Assembly (NCBI GenBank): GCA_963793305.1
Contig: CAWBZV010000002.1
Coordinates: 128,001 to 192,000 of the forward strand
Reading direction: 5' to 3'
DNA from: an uncultured Gemmatimonadales bacterium
Lineage (GTDB): Bacteria > Gemmatimonadota > Gemmatimonadetes > Gemmatimonadales > Gemmatimonadaceae
Length of the DNA stretch: 64,000 nt
Made by a program: the position numbers and the translations under genes. The notes beneath the pieces were generated by a model. It was not told the origin of the DNA, did not search any database, and saw only the letters and a program-made list of their open reading frames with translations. Below are positions 48,063-59,599 of the stretch, one piece after another. Position 1 is the stretch's first letter; each line of letters opens with the position of its first letter.

Positions 48063-49215
48063 CTAACGCCGATCGCTACCCCGATGGGCCCCTGACGTCC
48101 CTGGACGGCGGGGGTTCTTCGTTTCTCCCCCCCGATCGCGAGGAGGCCCTCGCCTGGGGTCTGACCTGGGAGCGGGAGACGTTGCCGGCGGAGCCGGAGC
48201 GCGCCTTTCGCGCCCGAGCAAATGCACTGCCGCCGCCGCGATCTCGATGCCGTCATAGCTGTCCAGGAGAGGCTCCAGCCAGGTTAGCTCGGCTGCGGGC
48301 ACTCCCGCCTCCAGAATGCGGCGGATCTCCTCGACGCGCTGCCTGGCGCGGTCCAGCGGCCCACTGAGCGTGAGCGGCGTGGCTCCAGGCAACCGGGCCA
48401 ACTCCCCCCGTTCAGCCAGCGCGACGATTTGCACGGGCGCTGACTGCACGACCGCGGCCATCTCAGCCGCATCGAGCGGGACGTCATAAAGCACAACCAG
48501 CGCCGCGCTCTCCGCGACAGTATCCCGCGCGACCCGCACCGCGTTTGCTTCGCCATAACCAAGGGCTCGTACGATCGCGCGCGCGGTCTGTTCCGAGGCG
48601 TCGGTGCGTGTCCAGACGATCGCCGACGGTGGATCGAGATCGTCGAGCAGGCGCCGGAGCGCCGTGGGTCGGTTGCCGGAACGTCACGCCGACATATCGC
48701 ATGCCGACGACGGACGCAGCCGGTGGAGTCCCGGCGACCCGGCGTGCGCGCCTCGCGTAGCGCTCGACGAGCGATTCGATCTCGGGCGTCGCCGCCAGTG
48801 CCGCCGTCGCCACAATCGTACGCGCCGAGTCCTTTGGTACCTCGGCCATGACTGCTTCGAGCGCCGGCCCGGCGCCAACCCATGCCATGACCAGCGCTCC
48901 GAGCCCGTCGAGCTTGAGCCGCGACCGCGCGATGAGGCCCTGGATGACCTCTGGCGGCCCGATCACGATCGCCGGAGGCGTCACACGCGCCGCGCGACCA
49001 ACCAATGTCGCCGCGAGCACGTCAGATCGGCCAAGTGCAGTGGCGATCGACACGGCGGTTTCCGCGTCTGGTGTCAGCACGAGAACAGCCGGGCCGCCGG
49101 AGCCAACATGCTCCAGCACCGGCGTCATAAAAGTCGAGACTGATGATGGATCAGCGGGGAGAACGAACAGCGTGTGCACGGATAGCGCAGGGGATGAAGA
49201 CGCGGTAACATACAT
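48063..49215 (-). CDS. Degenerate DEAD-box (DeaD-like) helicase homologue; apparent +1 frameshift near 48680
   Basis: VLVLTP, IVIGPPE and LKLDGLGALVMAW resemble motifs Ia, Ib and II. Removing one base at GAACGTC 48679-48685 gives LRRLLDDLDPPSAIVW..., continuous with ORF 48063-48539. Start uncertain. Confidence 0.65.
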
Positions 49216-49216
49216 C

Positions 49217-50378
49217 GTGACGACGACACTCGCGCCCGCGTTCGCGCCATCGGCGAACGTATCCCACATCAAAGAGTCCGCCACGCTCGCCGTGGCGAGC
49301 CGCGCCCGGGCGCTCAAAGCCGCGGGACGCGAGATCCTCGATCTCGGAGCTGGCGAGCCCGACTTCGACACGCCGGAATTCATTCGCCGCGCCGCGCAGA
49401 AGGCGATTGATTCGGGTGCCACGCGCTATACGGCGACTGAGGGCATCCTGCCGCTCCGCCAAGCGATCGCGGCCCAGGCCAACGCCGACCCGGCCGAGGT
49501 CGTGGTGTCCACGGGCTCCAAGCAGTCGCTGTTCAATGCGTGCTTCGCGCTCTTTGGGCCCGGAGAATGAAGTCTTGGTGCCGACGCCGAGTTGGACCTC
49601 GTACTACGAGATGGTCTCGCTGGCGCGCGCCAAAGCGGTCCCCGTGCACGGCCATGTCACGCGCGGGCTCAAGGTCACCGCGGACGAGCTGGCTCGTGCG
49701 GCAACGTCGCGCACGAAAGGTCTGATGCTGAACTCGCCATGTAACCCAACCGGCTCGGTGTACACGGCCGACGAGCTGAGCGAGATCCTGGAGCTCGCGG
49801 TTAGCCGTGGGTGGTGGGTGATCAGCGACGAAATTTATCAGAGAATCGCCTACGAATATCCCGCTCCGTCGGCACTATCGCTCATGCCCAATGGCAGTCG
49901 CGACCGCCTCGTATTGATCAACGGCGTCGCCAAGAGCTTCGCGATGACGGGATGGCGGATCGGCTGGGCGATCGCCCCAAAGCCCGTCGCGGCGGCGATG
50001 AACGCCCTCCAATCCCACACGACGTCGAACCCCGCGACGCCCTCGCAGTACGCTGCCCTCGCCGCCCTAACCGATACGGCAGCAGCCGACGCCGCGATCC
50101 AGCATATGGTCGCGACGTTCCGCGAGCGGCGCGATGCCGCCATGACCATTCTGGACTCGGCTGGCGTCACCTATATTCGACCGGACGGCGCCTTTTACCT
50201 GTATGTTCGCGTCGGCGACGGTGACGCGTTTGCTACGCGCCTAATGGATACGCACGGTGTCGCCGTGGTCCCCGGCTCGGCCTTCCTGACGCCCGAATGG
50301 GTGCGGCTCTCGTATGCGGCGCCTACGACGACCGTGACCGAGGGTGTCAAACGACTGACGTTGCTGCTCAAGAGCTAG
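49217..50378 (+). CDS. PLP-dependent class I aminotransferase (AspC-like); apparent +1 frameshift near 49566
   Basis: LGAGEPDFDTP, GSKQSL, PG[D]EVLVP, NSPCNPTG, SDEIY and AKSFAMTGWRIG. Confidence 0.92.
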
Positions 50379-50468: not shown

Positions 50469-51425
50469 TTAGTTCTGGTGGTCGAGGCACCAGTCTGATG
50501 CGCCGTGAAAGATCTCGAGCCAGTGCCCTGACTTGTACTTGAGCACGATCGGGAAGCTATCACCGCCATAGCGCCACCCTTCGATGACGACTTCGTCCAC
50601 GCCATCGCCGTCGATGTCGAGGTGATCGACATAGCGGCGATACTCGGCGTGCGCGGCCGATCCATCGACGGTCTTCACGAACGACGGCGAGTAGTCGGTC
50701 CCGTCCCAATCGGCGATGACGAAGACGTACGAGGTCTCGTCGCCATGCGCGGCCGCCTCCTCGGCGTTCGGGTCGATAAACGACGCGATGAGCGTCGGCT
50801 GAGCCGTGGCACCCGTATTGATCGCCAGGCCATGATAATCGAGCGAATCGAGGCGTGTCTTCGGGATGCCGGCGCCCGTGCCGACTTTCATGGCGATGTC
50901 GCGCGCCTTGGTCAGCGCGTCTTCGCGCGTCAGCGGCTGGGGCTTCTGCGCTTGTGTCGCGCCCGGCAGCGGCGTTCCCGACGCAAGAAACTCGACGGTG
51001 ATGCCCGCTTTGACCTTGCTATCGAGCGCCACGGCCGAGAGAGGCGTGAGCAAGTGGCAGTTCGGCAGCGAATAGAGCGGCATGCCAGGCTTCTCCCACA
51101 TGCCTTGCTTCACGGTCGCGGTGCCAGCGACCTGGCCATCCTGATAGAGCGTGTAGTTCGCGCCGGACCGGGTGTAGATGCGATCGAACGATTTCCATCC
51201 GGGCGCATCGAGCACGATCCCGCGCAGGTGTCCGCCTTCGACTGTCCCGATGGGAATCATGCGCGGATCTTCCCGCTCGCCGAAGACCTCGAACAAGACG
51301 TTGGGCCGCTTGGACAGATCAAGCACCGCGCTCTGCGATGCGCCCCCGGAGTCGGACTCCGTAGCGTGCTTGTCGCAGCCTAGCGCTGCGATTACCATAA
51401 CGCACAGTGCGACGCGGGCGATCAC
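50469..51425 (-). CDS. Hypothetical lipoprotein with a C-terminal Ca-binding-like loop
   Basis: Lipobox ALGC; DHLDIDGDGVDEVV (FG-GAP/VCBS-like loop). Confidence 0.75.
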   Translation of the reverse strand: MIARVALCVMVIAALGCDKHATESDSGGASQSAVLDLSKRPNVLFEVFGEREDPRMIPIGTVEGGHLRGIVLDAPGWKSFDRIYTRSGANYTLYQDGQVAGTATVKQGMWEKPGMPLYSLPNCHLLTPLSAVALDSKVKAGITVEFLASGTPLPGATQAQKPQPLTREDALTKARDIAMKVGTGAGIPKTRLDSLDYHGLAINTGATAQPTLIASFIDPNAEEAAAHGDETSYVFVIADWDGTDYSPSFVKTVDGSAAHAEYRRYVDHLDIDGDGVDEVVIEGWRYGGDSFPIVLKYKSGHWLEIFHGASDWCLDHQN

Positions 51426-51429
51426 GGAA

Positions 51430-52299
51430 GTGGTGACAGGGTTGAAGAACTTCAACTCGTACCGGGCGGTCCCCACGCTGGAGACGCTCGTGCGGGGCGC
51501 CGAGTCACCGCGTCTGGCGGTGCCCGAGGTGGTGGAAGGTCAGGCGCTGGCGCGCATTCCACTCTCCGGGCCGCCGGTCGTCGGGTTCGCCGCCTTCCTC
51601 AATGGCATCCAGCAAAGCCGCGTGGTGTACCACTCGGGCCTCGTCCCCATCGTCCACGGCACCGTCGGCGCCGTCATCCGGGTGCGCCGCGATCGCCGGC
51701 TCACGACGCACCCGCTCGGCCCCAGGATCTCACGCACGCTCCTCGCCCCGCGCCAGCTCCTTCCCGACGATCTCTGGAACGACCTGGTCCCGCTCGGCGT
51801 GATCGATACCGGGTCCGGCCCGGCCGACGCGCACCCGTCGGCATTGCTCGAACGCGCGATTCACCTCGTCGAGCAACGTCGCGAGGCGGCGGAGCGCTTC
51901 CTGGCCGAGGCCTGGGTTGATTCGGCTCCCCTCTGGGTCGATGGTCCGCTCTCCATCGCCTCATCTCAGGCAATCGGCGTCGTTCGTACCCACCGAACCC
52001 TCTACACCGAGTCGGATACGCTGCCGATGCTCTGCGAGCTGGCCGTGGGTGAGCGCAGCAGCATTTTCCGGGTGAGAGACAATTTCAGTTGGTATCTGCG
52101 ACTCAGAGACCCAGCCGGCCGCGATCCCCTGTGGGGGCTCCTCCGCGTCGAAGTAGCGGACGCAACCTCCGAACGGGCCGATCTCGTGTCGCGCTGGGTG
52201 CTGGCCGAGTCGACGCCACTCGCGCTGCCAGATCCCCGATGGGATACTCTGGTCTATGGAGTACGAGACTGCGAAGAATACCTCCGTGCCGTCTGCTGA
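51430..52299 (+). CDS. nurA: NurA-like nuclease (RNase H fold)
   Basis: AFL[N]GIQQS, R..AE, LWVDGPL, IGVVRTH, GERS.IF, SWYLRL and DPRW...VRDCEEYLR; overlaps the herA start. Start uncertain. Confidence 0.7.
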   Translation: MVTGLKNFNSYRAVPTLETLVRGAESPRLAVPEVVEGQALARIPLSGPPVVGFAAFLNGIQQSRVVYHSGLVPIVHGTVGAVIRVRRDRRLTTHPLGPRISRTLLAPRQLLPDDLWNDLVPLGVIDTGSGPADAHPSALLERAIHLVEQRREAAERFLAEAWVDSAPLWVDGPLSIASSQAIGVVRTHRTLYTESDTLPMLCELAVGERSSIFRVRDNFSWYLRLRDPAGRDPLWGLLRVEVADATSERADLVSRWVLAESTPLALPDPRWDTLVYGVRDCEEYLRAVC

Positions 52300-54247
52300 C
52301 GACGCGCTTCGGCCCGTTGGCCGCGTCGTAGCGACCGAGCGGCGGCCGAACACCCCGCACGAGTTCCATTTCTGGACCGCGCTCGACGCGGCGGTCGGCA
52401 TCGGGACGATCGTGCGGGTGGTCGGCACGCATCCGGTCGCGGGGCGTATCCCGACGGTGTACGGGGTCGTAGTCGAGGGCTTCAGCTACACCGACCTCGC
52501 CACGCCACTGCACGACGTGCTCGGCCACGACGGCGCGCCCGAGCGGGTGGCGGCTGCGCCCACCGAGCGTGCCGAGATCCGGCTGTACACGGCGGCCGTG
52601 CTGCGCCAGGTGCCCGAGGAGCCCCTGCAGCCGGTGCCCCTCGGCCAGGTGTTCCTGGCCAACGAGGCCGACGTCCTGATCGCCCTGCGCATGGACTCCT
52701 ACGCCGGCCGCGGCATCCCGGTCGGGTTGTATCGGGCTGGCGGCAGCGAGTCTCCCGTCTATCTCGACCCGGACTTCCTCCTCGGACCAGAAGCGGCTCA
52801 CCTCAACATCACGGGCGTGTCGGGTCTGGCCACGAAGACGAGCGCCGTCGAATGGCTGCTGTCGTCGATATTTGCTCACTTCCCGGCAGACAAGGGATCG
52901 GTCGCCGCGGTGTGCTTCAACGTCAAGGGACCCGATCTGTGCTTTCTGGATCTCCCCGCCAATCTCGAAGACGTTGATCGCGCGCTGTACGAACGCCTCG
53001 GCGTGCCCCCGGTCCCATTTCCCAACGTTCACTATTTCGCACCGTACACGGCCAAGGGGTATGCGCTGAATACCCTGCGCTCCAATGAAGCGCTGCTACA
53101 CAACGTCTCGCCGCTGACGTGGGGCCTGCGCGAGGTCCTTCAATTCGCCGAAGTATTACTCAACAGAGACGACGTTGACGCGAAGGCCGATGCGGTTATC
53201 GATTTTATACGAGAGAGAGTTGTTGATCGGCCGTTTCACGATGATACGTTGGCGTCGACGCACCATGTCAGATCGTTTGCGGATCTGGATGCGTGGTTTC
53301 GCGATGTCCTGGCGAGCATGGAGCGACGAAACGCGGAGTCGTGGCGAACCCATCACGGGGCGACGATCCGGAAGGTCAGAAATCGCCTGACCAATATCGC
53401 GACGCGTTGCGCGGGCCTCGTGACGAACGATGGGGGGACGAGCGATCTCCCGTTCGGGAGCTTTCGCGACCGGACGGTGTACGTGATCGATGTCGCCTTG
53501 CTCGAAGAAGACGCGCAGGATCTGATCTTCGCCCGCGTTGTCTCGAAGCTCCGCGAGCACCTCGAACGGCGGGATCTCGGCGTTCAGCACGTGGTGGTGT
53601 TCGTGGACGAGCTGAACAAATACGCGCCGGGCGACGGACCGGACACGTATGTGCGGAAGATGCTGCTCGATGTCGCCGAACGGGGCCGGTATCTCGGGCT
53701 CGTGCTGTTCGCCGCGCAGCAGTTCCGGTCGCAGGTCCATCGGCGGGTGGTCGGCAACGCTGGCACCGCGTTATTCGGTCGAATGGATGGCGACGAGTTG
53801 GCGACGCCAGGGTACGCCACCCTGGGGCCGGCCTTGCGCACGAAGTTGGCGACGTTGGAGAAGGGGCAACTGATGGTGCGACACCCGCATTTCGCGCAAC
53901 CGGTGTTCGTCCGGTTCCCTCGTCCGGCCGTGTTGACGGGCCGGCTGGGCGCCGAGCGCTATCCGCCGAGCACAGAGCCAGCCCTCGATGTGGCCGTCAC
54001 GCGCGCCCTGCGCGCGATCGATCCGGGGGTGACGCTCGGCTGGGTCCAAGACGTCATCGCGCTCGTCGACGATGCCGACGTGCTGCGCGCCAAGGTCGCC
54101 GTCGAGGTGACCCGGCCGCAGGACGTCAAAGCGTTCTTCCGCGCGACGCTGCGCACCGCGGCGCGCGTGGCTGCACCGGTTGCGGCATCTCCAGTTCCGG
54201 CGGTCCCATTGAAGACGGCGCCGGACGACGACCCGTACGGGTTTTGA
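52286..54247 (+). CDS. herA: HerA-family ATPase/DNA translocase
   Basis: N-terminal HAS-barrel-like region, HLNITGVSGLATKTS (Walker A variant), FNVKG, VFVDELNKYAP and ERGRYLG...AQQ. Confidence 0.85.
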   Translation: MPSADDALRPVGRVVATERRPNTPHEFHFWTALDAAVGIGTIVRVVGTHPVAGRIPTVYGVVVEGFSYTDLATPLHDVLGHDGAPERVAAAPTERAEIRLYTAAVLRQVPEEPLQPVPLGQVFLANEADVLIALRMDSYAGRGIPVGLYRAGGSESPVYLDPDFLLGPEAAHLNITGVSGLATKTSAVEWLLSSIFAHFPADKGSVAAVCFNVKGPDLCFLDLPANLEDVDRALYERLGVPPVPFPNVHYFAPYTAKGYALNTLRSNEALLHNVSPLTWGLREVLQFAEVLLNRDDVDAKADAVIDFIRERVVDRPFHDDTLASTHHVRSFADLDAWFRDVLASMERRNAESWRTHHGATIRKVRNRLTNIATRCAGLVTNDGGTSDLPFGSFRDRTVYVIDVALLEEDAQDLIFARVVSKLREHLERRDLGVQHVVVFVDELNKYAPGDGPDTYVRKMLLDVAERGRYLGLVLFAAQQFRSQVHRRVVGNAGTALFGRMDGDELATPGYATLGPALRTKLATLEKGQLMVRHPHFAQPVFVRFPRPAVLTGRLGAERYPPSTEPALDVAVTRALRAIDPGVTLGWVQDVIALVDDADVLRAKVAVEVTRPQDVKAFFRATLRTAARVAAPVAASPVPAVPLKTAPDDDPYGF

Positions 54248-55008
54248 TGCTCTCGGTACTGGTCCTCCTGCAGAGCGTGGTGCTGAGCATTCGCCCGCAC
54301 GCGGGTGACACGCTGCATATGCGCTACGACCAGCGGGTGGAGACGATCGCGACGACAGAACGCGGCCACGCCGACACGACCACCTCGGTCGTCTCGACCC
54401 TTCTCGTTATGAGTCGCACCATTGTCGAATCGAGCGACTCGTCGGGTGCTGACGTTGTCGCCGTCACCGACTCGGTGGCGTCGACGTCGTCCGGCGGGCG
54501 GACGCCCGAGTCAGCCCAAGCCGCGCGTGAGATGTTGCAAGGCAAAGAGGTCCGGCTGCGCCTGTCCCCGGACGGCGCCACGGTCGCCGAGGACACCGCG
54601 GCCAATCCCGAGTTGCGGTCGCTCTTCGCCGCCATGCCGGCGATCCTGCCCAAAGCGCCAACGCCGGTGGGGCGCCGCTGGAAACGGGAGATGGCCGGGC
54701 CGATCGGGGGCGCCATAGAGGGTGGGCACTCCGAGGTGAAAACGACGTTCCGGCTGGACTCCCTGTCGAAGACCGGAGATCTGGCCTACGTCTCGGTTCG
54801 CGGGACGATCACGGAAGCTTCGACCGGCCCCGGTCCCACCAAGAGCGAGTCCTCGGGCACGGTGAACGGGACCGTGCTCCTCGATCTCCGGCGCGGGTGG
54901 GTCACCGAATCCCGGGACCGGATCGTGATCACGTCCACCATCCGCTCTCGCGGCGCGAAGATGCGGATCAAAATGACCGTCACGCAGTGGCTGCGAGCGA
55001 TAGATTGA
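54247..55008 (+). CDS. Hypothetical, probably exported, beta-rich protein
   Basis: ATG overlaps the herA TGA; short hydrophobic N-terminus; Thr/Ser-rich alternating beta strands. Confidence 0.7.
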   Translation: MLSVLVLLQSVVLSIRPHAGDTLHMRYDQRVETIATTERGHADTTTSVVSTLLVMSRTIVESSDSSGADVVAVTDSVASTSSGGRTPESAQAAREMLQGKEVRLRLSPDGATVAEDTAANPELRSLFAAMPAILPKAPTPVGRRWKREMAGPIGGAIEGGHSEVKTTFRLDSLSKTGDLAYVSVRGTITEASTGPGPTKSESSGTVNGTVLLDLRRGWVTESRDRIVITSTIRSRGAKMRIKMTVTQWLRAID

Positions 55009-55011
55009 AGG

Positions 55012-56175
55012 ATGCGGCTCGTGCATCTGTCCGACCTGCACCTGGGGTTCAGACAATACCAACGTCTGACCCCGGCGGGAATCAATCAGCGCGAAGCCGA
55101 TGTGGCGGCGAGCTTCAAGACCGCGATAGACAAGATTGTCAGTCTCGAACCTGATCTGGTGCTGATCGCGGGTGACCTGTTCCACACGGTGCGCCCGTCC
55201 AATCCGGCGATTCTCCACGCCTTCTTGCAATTCGGCCGTCTCAAGAAATCCCTTCCGAACGCCGAGATCGTACTGATCGCGGGGAATCATGACCTCCCGC
55301 GTGCGAGCGAGACGGGTTGCATCCTGGGTCTCTTTCGACAACTGGGTCTCCATGTCGTCGACGCCGAAGCGCGGAGGATCGATCTTCCGGACCGCGGCGT
55401 CTCGATACTAGCCGTTCCAGACACATCAGCCCCTTTACCAGCACTCGTCGGCAATCCGTCCGCGAAGTACAACGTGTTGGTGCTCCATGGTGTGGTGCCT
55501 GGCCTGTTGCCGGACTGGTTTACGGCCTCCGATCGCGCGCGCACCGAGGTATCGCTCGAGGACCTCACGAAGTCCGACTGGGACTACGTCGCGCTCGGGC
55601 ACTATCACGTCTATCAACGGGTCAAGAAGCGCATCTTCTACTCGGGCGCGATCGATTACACGAGCACGAGCCCGTGGGGCGAGCTGTATCTCGAGGGTCA
55701 GGCGAACATTCCTGGCAAAGGTCTGATCGAGCACGATCTCGATTCCGGCCGGCACAAGTTTCATCCGTTACCACCGGCACGGAAGCACATCGATGTGCCG
55801 CCGATTCCCGCCTTCCAACTCGCGCCATCCGAGATCGACCGGCTGATCGCCGCTATGGTGAGCGAGGTCGATCTCGACGGCAACATCGTCCGTGTCGTGC
55901 TCCAGGATGCGCAGCGCCATGTCGTGCGCGAGCTCAATCACGCCGCGCTCCGCGAGTATCAACGGCGCGCGTTGCACTTTCAGCTGGACGTCCGGCGGTC
56001 CAATGTCCCGCGGGTGACGCTGTCAGGTGCCACGGGCCGGCGTCTCTCGTTGACCGAGATCGTGCGCGCGAAGCTCGAGACCCGGGAGCTCGAGGCGGAC
56101 CTCAATCGCGACGCGCTGATCGATCTCGGTCTCAAGTATCTGAAAGACGCCGAGGCGGTCGAGGTGCCGGAGTGA
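55012..56175 (+). CDS. sbcD: Mre11/SbcD nuclease
   Basis: HLSDLHLG, AGDLFH, GNHD, LHG, ALGHYH and YSG metallophosphoesterase motifs. Confidence 0.92.
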   Translation: MRLVHLSDLHLGFRQYQRLTPAGINQREADVAASFKTAIDKIVSLEPDLVLIAGDLFHTVRPSNPAILHAFLQFGRLKKSLPNAEIVLIAGNHDLPRASETGCILGLFRQLGLHVVDAEARRIDLPDRGVSILAVPDTSAPLPALVGNPSAKYNVLVLHGVVPGLLPDWFTASDRARTEVSLEDLTKSDWDYVALGHYHVYQRVKKRIFYSGAIDYTSTSPWGELYLEGQANIPGKGLIEHDLDSGRHKFHPLPPARKHIDVPPIPAFQLAPSEIDRLIAAMVSEVDLDGNIVRVVLQDAQRHVVRELNHAALREYQRRALHFQLDVRRSNVPRVTLSGATGRRLSLTEIVRAKLETRELEADLNRDALIDLGLKYLKDAEAVEVPE

Positions 56176-58622
56176 GGCTCAACAGCCTGCACCTGGTCAA
56201 CTTTCGACAGCACACCGACAGCCGCATCACGTTCGAGTCGGGCCTGACGGGGATCATCGGCCCCAATGGCTCGGGCAAGACGACGATCCTCGAGGCGATC
56301 ACGTGGGCCTTGTACGGCCACGCTCGCGGTACGCGCGATTCGATCCGCCACACGCGCGCCGGTCCGCGGGCGCCCGTTCGGGTCGAGCTCGATTTCGAGC
56401 TCGCCGGCCACCGCTTCCGCATCGAGCGGGGGTTGAACAGCGCCGAGTTGTATCTCGATGGCGCATCGACGCCGATCGCGAACACCATCTCGAGCGTCAC
56501 CAGCCAGCTGCAGAAAAAGCTCGGCATGACCCGGGCCGAGTTCTTCCACACGTATTTCACGGGCCAGAAAGAGCTCGGCCTCATGGCCGCGATGGGTCCG
56601 GCCGATCGGGCGCGGTTCCTGTCGCGTGTTCTCGGCTACGAGCGACTCCGCGTCGCCCAAGAGCTGGCGCGGGAACGCCGCAAGGCGATCCTGGCCGAGG
56701 TCACCGGAATGCGGAGCGGCATGGGCGACCGCGAGACGATCCTCCGCGCGGTGGCGGTGGCCGAGTCGCGACTCGCCGAGGCGACCGAGCGGTCGGTGCA
56801 GGCCGGGTCGAGTCTCGAACGCGCCGAGACCGCCCTCGGCGCGATCGCGCCTCAGTGGGAGCGCGCGCAGCAAGAGCGGGAGCGTTGGAAGGAGTTGTCG
56901 GCGCGCCTGCAGGTGGCCGAGGGCAAGGTCGACGATCTCCTGAAGAACGCCCAACGGATTGCGCGTGACCTGGACGAGGTACGCGCCTCGCGCGCGGAGC
57001 TCGACGCCTTGCGCGTGCAGCTCGGCGGATACCGCGCGCTCGTGCAAGAGGTCCAGCAGCTGGATATCCTCGCGCGAGAGGAGGGCCGCCGCAAAGCGTT
57101 AGGAGAGCAGGAGCGGGTACTTGCGGATGATCTATCACAACTCGCCGAGCGGGTCGATCGCCTGGAGTCAGCGCCAACGCTGGCCGCTGAAGTAGAGGCC
57201 GAGCTCGCAAAGTCGCAGGCCGCACTCACGGATGCCCAGTCGCGGACTGACGCTCGGCAAAACGAATGGGTTCGCGACCAGCAGGAAGCGAAAACGAAGC
57301 TCCAGTCACTCGTCGCGCAGCGAAAAGATGTCCGCCGTCAGCAAGAACAGTTGCAGGCGGTCGGCGAACATGGTGAGTGCCCCACGTGCGGCCAGTCGCT
57401 CGGTGGTGGTCACTTTCGAAAAGTTCTGGATGAGTTGGAGCGCCAGGCCGACGAGATCTCGGTCAATGGCAAGTATTATCAAGATCGCCAGAAACAGTTA
57501 GCCGACCGCCCCGCCGATCTGATCGAGCTCGAAGCCTTGCGCGCCACGCTCACGAAACAGTCGGGCACCCTCGATCGCAAGCTGGTGAGAGCCCAGGAAG
57601 CCGTAAAGGAACTGGAAGGGCTGCGACGGGACCTGAGCGAGAAGCAGGTCCGGCGGAAGAAGATTCGCGCCGAGTTGGATGGCCTGCCGGTAGGCTACGA
57701 CGAGGCGCGTCACCGCCAAGCACGGGCCGACATCGAACGGCTGGCGCCCCTCGATCAGCGCGCGTCCCGGGTGAGCGGGGCAGTGGAGCGCACGCCCGTG
57801 CTCGAACACGACAAAGCGCAGATCGAGGCCTCGCTCGCCGCCGCGCGCATCACGGTCGCGGAGCTCAACGGGCAGCGCGATGCGCTCGCGTTCGATGCCA
57901 CGCTCTATGCGAGTCTGCGCGAGCAGTTCGAGCGCTCGGATGCGCTGGCGCGTGCGGCGGAGCTGGACACGGTCCGCGCCATCGCGGAGACCCACGCCGC
58001 GCGCAAAGCGTTGGAGACTGCCGAACAGGCCCGGGTCGAGTGGGACAAGATCCACGCGCGACTGGAGGGGCTGGTGGTCGACCGGCGACTGCACGACGAG
58101 GTCGATCGCGCCTATACCGCCCTGCGCGACGACCTCAATATCCAGCTCAGACCAGAGATCTCGGAGCTGGCCAGCGAGTTCCTGGCCGAGCTGACGGACG
58201 GGCGCTATAGTGAGCTCGAGCTCGATGACGAGTACAATATCAATGTGCTCGAAGACGGGGTGCCGAAGCCCGTGATCTCGGGGGGCGAGGAAGATATCGC
58301 GAATCTGGTGCTGCGCCTCTCGGTGTCGCAGATGATCGCGGACCGCGCGGGCCAGTCGTTCTCGCTCCTCGTGCTCGACGAGGTATTCGGGTCGTTGGAC
58401 GACAGCCGCCGGCACAACGTGGTCGAGCTCCTGCGGCGTCTCCACGACCGGTTCGATCAGGTCATCGTCATCACGCACATCGATTCCGTGCGCGATGGAC
58501 TCGATCGCGTGATCTCCGTGCGCTATGACGCCGCGCGCGGCACGTCGGTCGTGGATGCACCACCAGGTTCGTCCGCCGATCCCACGGAGCCACTCGAACT
58601 GGCACTCGAGGCCGCTGACTAA
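56172..58622 (+). CDS. sbcC: Rad50/SbcC SMC-like ATPase
   Basis: GTG overlaps the sbcD stop; GPNGSGKTT, coiled coils, CPTCG zinc hook, ISGGEE, LVLDEVFGSLD and ITH. Confidence 0.93.
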   Translation: MRLNSLHLVNFRQHTDSRITFESGLTGIIGPNGSGKTTILEAITWALYGHARGTRDSIRHTRAGPRAPVRVELDFELAGHRFRIERGLNSAELYLDGASTPIANTISSVTSQLQKKLGMTRAEFFHTYFTGQKELGLMAAMGPADRARFLSRVLGYERLRVAQELARERRKAILAEVTGMRSGMGDRETILRAVAVAESRLAEATERSVQAGSSLERAETALGAIAPQWERAQQERERWKELSARLQVAEGKVDDLLKNAQRIARDLDEVRASRAELDALRVQLGGYRALVQEVQQLDILAREEGRRKALGEQERVLADDLSQLAERVDRLESAPTLAAEVEAELAKSQAALTDAQSRTDARQNEWVRDQQEAKTKLQSLVAQRKDVRRQQEQLQAVGEHGECPTCGQSLGGGHFRKVLDELERQADEISVNGKYYQDRQKQLADRPADLIELEALRATLTKQSGTLDRKLVRAQEAVKELEGLRRDLSEKQVRRKKIRAELDGLPVGYDEARHRQARADIERLAPLDQRASRVSGAVERTPVLEHDKAQIEASLAAARITVAELNGQRDALAFDATLYASLREQFERSDALARAAELDTVRAIAETHAARKALETAEQARVEWDKIHARLEGLVVDRRLHDEVDRAYTALRDDLNIQLRPEISELASEFLAELTDGRYSELELDDEYNINVLEDGVPKPVISGGEEDIANLVLRLSVSQMIADRAGQSFSLLVLDEVFGSLDDSRRHNVVELLRRLHDRFDQVIVITHIDSVRDGLDRVISVRYDAARGTSVVDAPPGSSADPTEPLELALEAAD

Positions 58623-59599
58623 TGGCGGTCGTGAGGACGTGGCGCTCGACGAGGCCCGCTGACGGCCCGCACCCGGCGCGCCGTGAAGACATCCCCGGCC
58701 TCAATCAGGTCTTCAGCGACGCGTTCACCGAGCGGTACCGGCGCGATGGCATGATCGGCGTGCGCGTCCCGTTCTTGAATCCGGCGATCTGGCGTTACGC
58801 GATCGAAGACGCGGCCGAAGGCGCGATGCTCTGGCGCAGTGATCGCGGCGAGGTGATCGCGTTCAACATGACGCATCGCTCCGGCGTCGAAGGGTGGATG
58901 GGCCCGCTGGCCGTGCGTCCCGAGTCGCAGGGATCCGGGCTGGGGAAGGATCTGGTACGAGCCGGCATTGATTGGTTGAACCGCGCCGAGGCCCGGGTGA
59001 TCGGCCTCGAGACGATGCCGCGGACCATGGACAACATCGGCTTCTACTCGAGCCTCGGCCTCGTGCCTGGGCGACTCACGATGACGTTGACGCTCGAGGC
59101 CGCGGCCGCGGATCGGCAAGGACTCGTGCTCGGGCGCCAGCCGCGCGGCACACAGGACGACCTCATCGCCGAGTGTCGCTCGCTCGTCGGAGCGCAGATT
59201 CCGGGGTATGACTACACGCGTGAGTTGTTGCTCACTGATCATCTCGCCCTCGGTGACACGGTGCTCTTACGGGACGACGCCGATGCGTTGATCGGCTTTG
59301 CGCTGTGTCATACGGCGCCGCTCGTCGAGGGTCGTTCGCGCGACGAGCTCCGTGTGCTCAAACTCGTCGTGCGGTCGCTCCCGGATCTCGACGCCATGGT
59401 CCGGTTGCTCGCCGACTACGCGCGCCGGAGCGGTACGCGCCGCGTCGCGTTGCGGGTGCAGGGTGAATACGTCGAAGCCTACCAGCGCCTCATCGCCCTG
59501 GGCGCGCGCGTGCGCTGGACCGATCTCCGGATGTCGCTGGCGGGCGCCCCCGAGCCTCGCGCGGCTACCGGGATTGTTTGGTCGAATTGGGAGGTTTGA
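58622..59599 (+). CDS. GNAT-family N-acetyltransferase (tandem-GNAT size)
   Basis: GPLAVRPESQGSGLGK acetyl-CoA motif and NIGFYSSLG. Confidence 0.85.
   Translation: MAVVRTWRSTRPADGPHPARREDIPGLNQVFSDAFTERYRRDGMIGVRVPFLNPAIWRYAIEDAAEGAMLWRSDRGEVIAFNMTHRSGVEGWMGPLAVRPESQGSGLGKDLVRAGIDWLNRAEARVIGLETMPRTMDNIGFYSSLGLVPGRLTMTLTLEAAAADRQGLVLGRQPRGTQDDLIAECRSLVGAQIPGYDYTRELLLTDHLALGDTVLLRDDADALIGFALCHTAPLVEGRSRDELRVLKLVVRSLPDLDAMVRLLADYARRSGTRRVALRVQGEYVEAYQRLIALGARVRWTDLRMSLAGAPEPRAATGIVWSNWEV

Follow-up and report, generated by a model that had tools for sequence, protein, structure and literature searches.

The window, a stretch of 64,000 nucleotides from the genome of an uncultured Gemmatimonad, carries a six-gene block at a fixed chromosomal site; the locus probably serves housekeeping DNA-end processing, in which it would combine SbcCD with HerA-NurA and use RecJ or SbcD for cutting. 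SbcCD (Mre11-Rad50) would bind DNA ends that are broken or blocked and open them; threading and unwinding would fall to the HerA ring, capped by NurA. In this lineage, where two catalytic residues of NurA are gone, 5' strand cutting is likely to be performed mainly by RecJ or SbcD. Similarly to the situation in Deinococcus, the locus is likely to assist a RecJ/RecQ (RecFOR) route and not to be an indispensable replacement for AddAB; D. radiodurans likewise depends on RecJ/RecQ and is without RecBCD/AddAB, and it does not appear in the PF12705 control list. The activities of the proteins, the contacts of HerA with NurA and with Mre11-Rad50, and the loss of NurA cutting are all carried over from work on D. 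radiodurans and on Sulfolobus; for the latter, PMC2288612 describes co-precipitation of Mre11, Rad50 and HerA.

All six genes lie on the + strand in the order first noted, with overlapping or abutting junctions: nurA (51430..52299), herA (52256..54247), orf3 (54247..55008), sbcD/mre11 (55012..56175), sbcC/rad50 (56172..58622) and a GNAT gene (58622..59599). The end of nurA (stop codon 52297-52299) overlaps herA from either candidate start of the latter (ATG 52256, GTG 52286). Herein herA and orf3 share one nucleotide at 54247 (TGATG), orf3 and sbcD are separated by 3 nt, sbcD and sbcC overlap in GTGA (56172-56175), and sbcC meets the GNAT gene in TAATG (58622). The start of nurA is uncertain because a divergent upstream gene begins a few bases off; GTG 51430/51433, TTG 51442 and GTG 51490 are candidates, and the N-terminus is shortened. 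A sigma-70 promoter scan found no promoters, and terminator-like sites were at the expected frequency (5 vs 4.5). The host is a soil-type bacterium.

The identities proposed for NurA, HerA, SbcD, SbcC and GNAT were upheld by fold, profile and motif searches. NurA has no match in Pfam, NCBIfam or PADLOC; phmmer matches it to D. radiodurans NurA (7f6d, E 2e-5). An RNase H-like NurA fold is present in the AlphaFold model of the 51430-52299 protein (pLDDT 92), for which the top three Foldseek matches are all NurA structures (7f6d, E 1e-13; 1zup; 2ygk), and the protein is a nuclease-family member of bacterial (Deinococcus/Thermotoga) type. HerA, an ATPase/translocase, has no Pfam or NCBIfam match; it matches D. 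radiodurans HerA at E 6e-43. SbcD is a calcineurin-like nuclease in which all five phosphoesterase metal motifs (DLH, GD, GNHD, H, GHYH) are intact. SbcC (816 aa) has a split ABC head, with Walker A, Q-loop, SGGE signature, Walker B and H-loop, and a coiled coil; the predicted CPTCG zinc hook is confirmed at residue 403, and CPxC is found in 70/70 aligned SbcC sequences.

The description of the locus as archaeal-type stands in part. The four protein families (NurA, HerA, SbcD and SbcC) are in one coupled block, as in the herA-mre11-rad50-nurA operon of Sulfolobus, Pyrococcus and Thermococcus, and SbcC and SbcD score highest against archaeal Rad50/Mre11 models and structures, at values below curated cut-offs. 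In contrast, HerA and NurA are Deinococcus-type and the gene order differs from that of the archaeal operon. D. radiodurans HerA is the sole PDB match of the HerA profile at E<=1 (E 4e-58), with no archaeal HerA at that threshold, and bacterial NurAs rank first by fold. As far as the sequences go, the cluster is not an archaeal import.

The original prediction of a complete resection machine is not supported, since NurA is missing two catalytic residues. Motif I reads FLNG here; Asp is found at this site in 81/85 aligned sequences, and Asn58 (codon 51601-51603) was equated with drNurA D53 by motif position. The second change is Lys to Arg at the equivalent of drNurA K201 (codon 51985-51987; Lys in 82/85 aligned sequences), where in the alignment Arg186 falls on chain residue 221 of 7f6d_H, which is K201 after a 20-residue offset. 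Motif II (D171-G172) and the C-terminal acidic residue E282 are intact (84/85 aligned sequences in each case). The two substitutions, overlooked in the original reading, occur together in four of the six genomes of the window genus; they are not assembly errors, since contigs from public runs cover both codons with zero differences. NurA of G155 and of G152 bears Asp and Lys. The part of PMC9960219 on drNurA mutants reports that D53A and K201A abolish cutting while ATPase stimulation is kept. By analogy with that work, window NurA is likely to be weak or dead as a nuclease and to cap the HerA motor; both changes are conservative, and residual activity may persist. Mn-dependent 5'-3' nuclease activity, as a dimer on a HerA hexamer, is characteristic of the NurA nuclease family. 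Compared with a single relative (L001), NurA still shows purifying selection (dN/dS 0.30, vs 0.13-0.25 in five control pairs).

In HerA, the Walker A motif GLATKT (GxATKT, as in D. radiodurans), the catalytic Asp, the Walker B DE and an ERGR motif, which we take to be the arginine finger, are invariant in 97/97 sequences. The catalytic residues align with drHerA K175, T176, D220, D487 and E488. The pore differs: R495 and R552 of drHerA are required for translocation according to the corresponding passage of PMC9960219, while window HerA has Gly and Thr, respectively, at the aligned sites. Since these arginines are replaced throughout the family (Gly/Ala/Ser at the R495 site in 77/97, Thr/Ser at the R552 site in 93/97), it cannot be taken for granted that HerA of this clade pumps DNA. 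The motif QQFRSQ contains an invariant Arg, a putative substitute that may take over their role.

The linkage of nurA-herA to sbcD-sbcC expected in related genomes was borne out by a synteny survey. Across 107 genomes of the order, HerA is present in 97, NurA in 83, SbcD in 106 and GNAT in 107. Where both genes of a pair were scored, nurA lies <=300 bp from herA in 73/82 genomes and herA <=5 kb from sbcD in 95/96; GNAT follows sbcD at SbcC spacing in 96/106. Site and order are identical in 80 related loci and are also shared by 20 loci of more distant families, eight of which gave no nurA match. The constant core is sbcD-sbcC-GNAT, which is retained where nurA-herA is deleted; clean deletion of nurA-herA was seen in five loci checked, from several lineages. 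Family f7 has a separate four-gene cluster in 11/16 genomes; the genes are joined in 11/11 of these loci, in two different orders, of which the archaeal order accounts for 6/11. Four-gene clusters are also found on Chlorohelix and Sphaerospermopsis plasmids from other phyla.

The block might instead consist of two or three unrelated modules on one transcript: SbcCD would cleave hairpins and forks, NurA-HerA would be dispensable and in decay here, and GNAT and orf3 would travel along without a part in repair. Survival of the core after nurA-herA deletion would suit such a patchwork, as would the up to ~5 kb of other DNA between herA and sbcD. On a tree of 54 taxa, evolutionary rates did not covary positively for any two of the five genes, although this is a weak test with residuals biased negative at five genes. 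In addition, neither sbcC nor sbcD, herA or nurA was seen near ten sister-family GNAT loci and four further distant ones, although several of the contigs are short. The patchwork is nonetheless improbable: the four genes are joined again in f7, on the two plasmids and, according to a passage of PMC5448004, in Oceanithermus. This repeated joining, with two orders in f7, is not what chance would produce.

Most relatives in the order lack the usual bacterial break-trimming enzymes. The AddA profile matches 18/107 genomes inside the order vs 38/43 outside, and PF12705 matches 34/107 vs 43/43. In the window genome (G000, 92% complete), the proposed check for RecBCD, AddAB and AdnAB found none of them, with neither PF12705 nor RecC detected; there are only two UvrD loci. 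A suspected hidden AddA on contig C11 is actually a PcrA/UvrD with an intein-like insert. The genome carries RecJ, two RecQ, RecO and Ku, and RecJ is present in 57/61 genomes of the order. The suggested DNA-end role is supported, for a genome in which the search detected no RecBCD/AddAB/AdnAB.

A stronger reading of this scarcity is true replacement, in which the four proteins form one archaeal-like resection machine that ousted AddAB and allowed its repeated loss. The complementarity seen at the level of the order and the tight, conserved four-gene linkage are in line with this. Remaining AddA copies in the order form several separate clades, one of them sister to the f7 copies (43 sequences, midpoint root; G049 and G118 left out as fragments), which fits patchy loss and regain, and AddA is present in 6 of the 15 genomes that have herA and are without nurA. 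Within the order, however, the association is not significant: AddA occurs in 11/82 genomes with nurA and herA vs 7/25 that lack the pair (Fisher p 0.12, related genomes not being independent). Fourteen of the 107 genomes have neither the full nurA-herA pair nor PF12705, which refutes strict replacement as a rule; in family f3, HerA is found in 0/12 genomes and clear AddAB in only ~4/12. Family f7 retains both systems (AddA in 15/16 genomes), nurA-herA is cleanly deleted in the five loci mentioned above, and NurA is catalytically altered in the very clade where AddA was not found. Replacement is possible on this balance but unlikely, and a supporting housekeeping role is preferred.

HerA motors paired with nucleases are also known from the anti-phage systems TdpAB, SIR2-HerA and HerA-DUF4297, and the locus had been suggested to be a defence module that senses DNA ends and destroys phage or foreign DNA. 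The NurA fold does resemble the TdpAB structure 8wfd (E 2e-5), the distant four-gene clusters are plasmid-borne, and a passage of a review states that bacterial NurA-HerA chiefly degrades viral DNA (PMC13748450). The setting speaks strongly against defence. The block is present in single copy, fixed between aatC and folE among metabolic genes, with genome-like GC; it is vertical and near-universal in the order and, unlike HerA anti-phage systems, is without a defence island, effector or modification genes. PADLOC matches HerA only at E 0.007 and gives nothing for NurA or GNAT. A search of a plasmid collection for HerA gave three records at 26-30% identity and nothing closer. A dedicated defence module is therefore very improbable. 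Repair and defence roles can overlap, as AddAB-type enzymes also degrade phage DNA.

The closest known relative of the pair is D. radiodurans NurA-HerA (PDB 7F6D, 7WRW, 7WRX; described in part of PMC9960219), the best NurA match by both sequence and fold; unlike it, the window pair is linked to sbcD-sbcC and GNAT, lacks the two HerA pore arginines and has Asn/Arg for the catalytic Asp/Lys of NurA. The layout itself is not new, contrary to the rarity first supposed. Oceanithermus profundus has the identical four genes in identical order (nurA-hepA(herA)-sbcD-sbcC; PMC5448004); this is a single genus-level note, and the passage concerned is silent on GNAT and orf3. In the window lineage, the cluster is order-wide and accompanied by AddAB scarcity. 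A literature search on Gemmatimonad NurA, RecBCD/AddAB and bacterial Rad50 acetylation did not find the cluster; earlier surveys were outside its scope. The new details are the AddA/RecB scarcity, the sbcD-sbcC-GNAT core and the Asp to Asn and Lys to Arg changes in NurA.

A passage of PMC9960219 calls the role of NurA-HerA in bacteria controversial and confined to few bacteria; the order as a whole, with its near-constant herA-sbcD proximity, contradicts that passage. The pair is reported as essential in Sulfolobus islandicus (PMC4351679), unlike in parts of the Gemmatimonad order, where it is dispensable. In Deinococcus and Thermus, nurA/herA deletions affect damage resistance modestly or even improve it. 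Since every part is familiar and this layout is already on record, what is gained is a testable system and no new type of machine. Natural variants on offer include the cluster with AddAB, the cluster alone, the cluster without nurA or without nurA-herA, and the cluster with altered NurA.

The GNAT is a tandem two-domain acyltransferase encoded directly 3' of sbcC, with which it is likely to be co-expressed. It shares a two-domain fold with the tandem GNATs 3tt2, 3ddd and 7q3a and with MshD 1ozp (TM-score 0.55-0.68); identity is <=19%, and a substrate cannot be transferred from them. Its family has motifs of its own, WxGPLAV and GLETMPR. Linkage is what favours a possible regulation of Rad50 by the GNAT. 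Among 61 SbcC sequences, no special acetyl-acceptor lysine stood out, since only K36, K133 and K699 are kept in >=80%. Three apparent SbcC-GNAT fusions (P0155, P0158, P0161) look like frame-broken fragments and were dismissed as fusion evidence. A bolder scenario, which we regard as a long shot, is that the order mostly dropped AddAB/RecBCD in favour of a Mre11-Rad50-HerA machine in which acetylation by the dedicated GNAT encoded next to it switches Rad50, as a bacterial counterpart of cohesin acetylation by Eco1, with NurA in one clade being a pseudonuclease that only caps HerA and splits strands.

The remaining gene, orf3, encodes a DUF6263-like protein. Homologues have a signal-peptide-like N-terminus, which is shortened in the window copy, and the protein is likely to be an exported passenger. 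Its occurrence is variable and mostly within the host's own family.

The nurA-herA-orf3-sbcD/mre11-sbcC/rad50-GNAT cluster is real, conserved and built from known parts. All six ORFs lie on the + strand of the window (51430-59599), and ORF calls and a junction check bear out the overlapping or abutting junctions first described. The GC content of the cluster (0.61-0.68) is similar to that of the remainder of the window; a profile search of the host genome (5.7 Mb, 26 contigs, 92% complete) finds one copy of every cluster gene. The divergent upstream gene (50469-51476, - strand) has no match in Pfam, NCBIfam or PADLOC; its product has a hydrophobic stretch ending in LGC and is presumably a lipoprotein. 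The DNA between this gene and nurA is much shortened in the host's clade, and the two starts nearly touch. At 48063-49422 (- strand), ORFs overlapping in different frames resemble a degenerate DEAD-box-like helicase, possibly with a frame break.

HerA and NurA of the window are recognised by neither Pfam nor NCBIfam. In the PDB, a single-sequence search with HerA has D. radiodurans HerA (drHerA) as its sole match (E 6e-43), and a 27-sequence profile has the same single match at E<=1 (E 4e-58). NurA (51430-52299) matches D. radiodurans NurA (drNurA) and T. maritima TM1739 in sequence; its predicted model (pLDDT 92) confirms a NurA fold, with the NurA structures 7f6d, 1zup and 2ygk as best fold matches, followed by the HerA-based anti-phage system TdpAB. 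By these matches the pair is predicted to be of bacterial type, not archaeal as the original prediction had it. HerA across the window's whole family differs from drHerA: positions aligned with its pore arginines R495 and R552 carry other residues, while the Arg in QQFRSQ is invariant. SbcD and SbcC, straightforward homologues of Mre11 and Rad50, retain every motif; their best scores are to archaeal Mre11/Rad50 models and structures, yet fall under curated cut-offs. Orf3 is DUF6263-like, with matches in 64/80 near loci and 4/20 more distant loci; its N-terminus is shortened in the window, while homologues start with a signal-peptide-like sequence. The GNAT is a tandem two-domain acyltransferase.

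A set of 150 genomes sampled evenly across the phylum includes 107 of the order; these contain orthologues of HerA (97), NurA (83), SbcD (106) and the GNAT (107). A synteny survey shows that linkage is kept order-wide: nurA lies <300 bp from herA in 73/82 genomes, and herA <5 kb from sbcD in 95/96. The GNAT lies one SbcC-length behind sbcD in 96/106 genomes; five of the remaining ones have it on another contig. In 80 loci found via HerA, many on short contigs whose ends limit neighbour counts, the available DNA includes nurA (77), sbcD (68), sbcC (61) and the GNAT (48). Two loci (L085, L093) have another gene, taken to be O-methyltransferase-like, in nurA's place directly upstream of herA. In metagenome loci, sbcC adjoins a GNAT of the cluster type in 61/70 cases; the other nine begin at a contig end. 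All five herA-less genomes inspected lack nurA-herA at the usual site beside aatC and retain sbcD-sbcC-GNAT there (folE is downstream in 4/5). Since this core stays at the same site where nurA-herA is missing, sbcD-sbcC-GNAT is the constant part and nurA-herA the optional part.

No match to PF12705 (the nuclease domain of RecB/AddA/AddB/AdnA) or RecC is found in the 92% complete host genome, which has only two UvrD loci; RecBCD, AddAB and AdnAB are thus not found there. It carries RecJ, two RecQ, RecO and Ku. The PcrA/UvrD gene (G000:C11:31650-35200) is interrupted by an intein-like insert, which itself contains a frame break in the assembly. In the incomplete assemblies behind these repair-gene counts, where not found does not equal absent, a five-sequence AddA profile (E<=1e-45) matches 18/107 genomes in the order versus 38/43 outside, and the looser PF12705 test 34/107 versus 43/43; RecJ is found in 57/61 genomes of the order. 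AddA accompanies nurA and herA in 11/82 genomes and occurs without the full pair in 7/25 (p 0.12; kin are not independent). Neither the full pair nor PF12705 is found in 14/107 genomes. Family f3 has HerA in 0/12 and clear AddAB in about 4/12; in family f7, AddA is found in 15/16, and 11/16 carry a four-gene cluster of a more distant type. These figures speak against a simple swap of the cluster for AddAB. In a midpoint-rooted tree (two fragments dropped), the AddA copies remaining in the order split among several clades; this agrees with patchy loss and regain and does not fix the sequence of events. RecB-like helicase-nucleases in two genomes of the host's own family (G036, G132) branch apart from AddA.

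The window NurA is altered. Motif I reads FLNG where 81/85 aligned sequences have Asp, a site that by motif position probably corresponds to drNurA D53; the GVVK lysine (82/85), which aligns with drNurA K201, is Arg. These two residues speak against the prediction of a complete machine. According to PMC9960219, D53A and K201A in D. radiodurans abolish cutting and leave ATPase stimulation unchanged. Contigs from public runs agree with the assembly without differences at the Asn codon (X3, X5) and the Arg codon (X2). In 4/6 genomes of the genus, a set that may overlap the nearest related loci used elsewhere, the two substitutions occur along with a shortened N-terminus and a deleted loop; the other two retain Asp and Lys. 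Against the related locus L001, dN/dS is 0.06 for HerA and 0.30 for NurA; five control pairs with intact NurA give 0.13-0.25. NurA therefore lies above controls and far below 1, so the protein is retained under somewhat relaxed constraint. Full AddA is not found in four genomes of the host's clade (G000, G151 at 67% completeness, G153, G154); G155 has intact NurA together with AddAB.

The cluster is most likely a housekeeping DNA-end locus assisting a RecJ/RecQ route. Judging from homologues, SbcCD would open blocked ends, and HerA with NurA would thread and unwind them; in most members of the order NurA would in addition resect the 5' strand, an activity shown for D. radiodurans (PMC9960219). 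In the host's clade NurA is likely to be mainly a structural cap. The fixed site and almost universal occurrence make the alternative proposal, a DNA-end-sensing defence module, an unlikely main role.

The GNAT was also proposed to regulate the machine by acetylation. Its start overlaps the sbcC stop in the window, and this, its presence throughout the order and its retention beside sbcCD after nurA-herA loss count in favour of a link. Against a link, the GNAT is absent from two out-of-order genomes (f4, f5) with close HerA and SbcD, from the f7 four-gene clusters and from annotated plasmid clusters; no repair-cluster neighbours accompany the sister GNATs at 10 metagenome loci and four further loci, several on short contigs; and in weak tests the GNAT rate does not track that of SbcC. 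Dedicated regulation of SbcC is improbable. At four loci (L177, L180, L181, L182) a gene that starts with an ISASRR-type motif, presumably DUF1848-like, is found one or two genes downstream of a sister GNAT; in three, the gene just ahead of the GNAT resembles, we assume, an NlpC/P60-type protein.

The cluster is less surprising than originally judged. PMC5448004 places sbcD and sbcC downstream of nurA-hepA in Oceanithermus profundus; a 2026 review (PMC13748450) denies such synteny in bacteria. Our literature search, whose scope left out three key older papers, found no description of the gemmatimonad cluster. The distant f7 clusters, in a family also having AddAB, follow the archaeal order herA-sbcD-sbcC-nurA in 6 loci and nurA-herA-sbcD-sbcC in 5; four adjoin another SMC-like gene. 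The gemmatimonad cluster is useful as a test system on account of AddAB scarcity across the order, its sbcD-sbcC-GNAT core and the altered NurA. The four genes also occur together on one Sphaerospermopsis and one Chlorohelix plasmid; on the latter (L121:3835-13149), genes for a sigma-70 factor, a small hypothetical protein and an ImmA/IrrE protease precede them.
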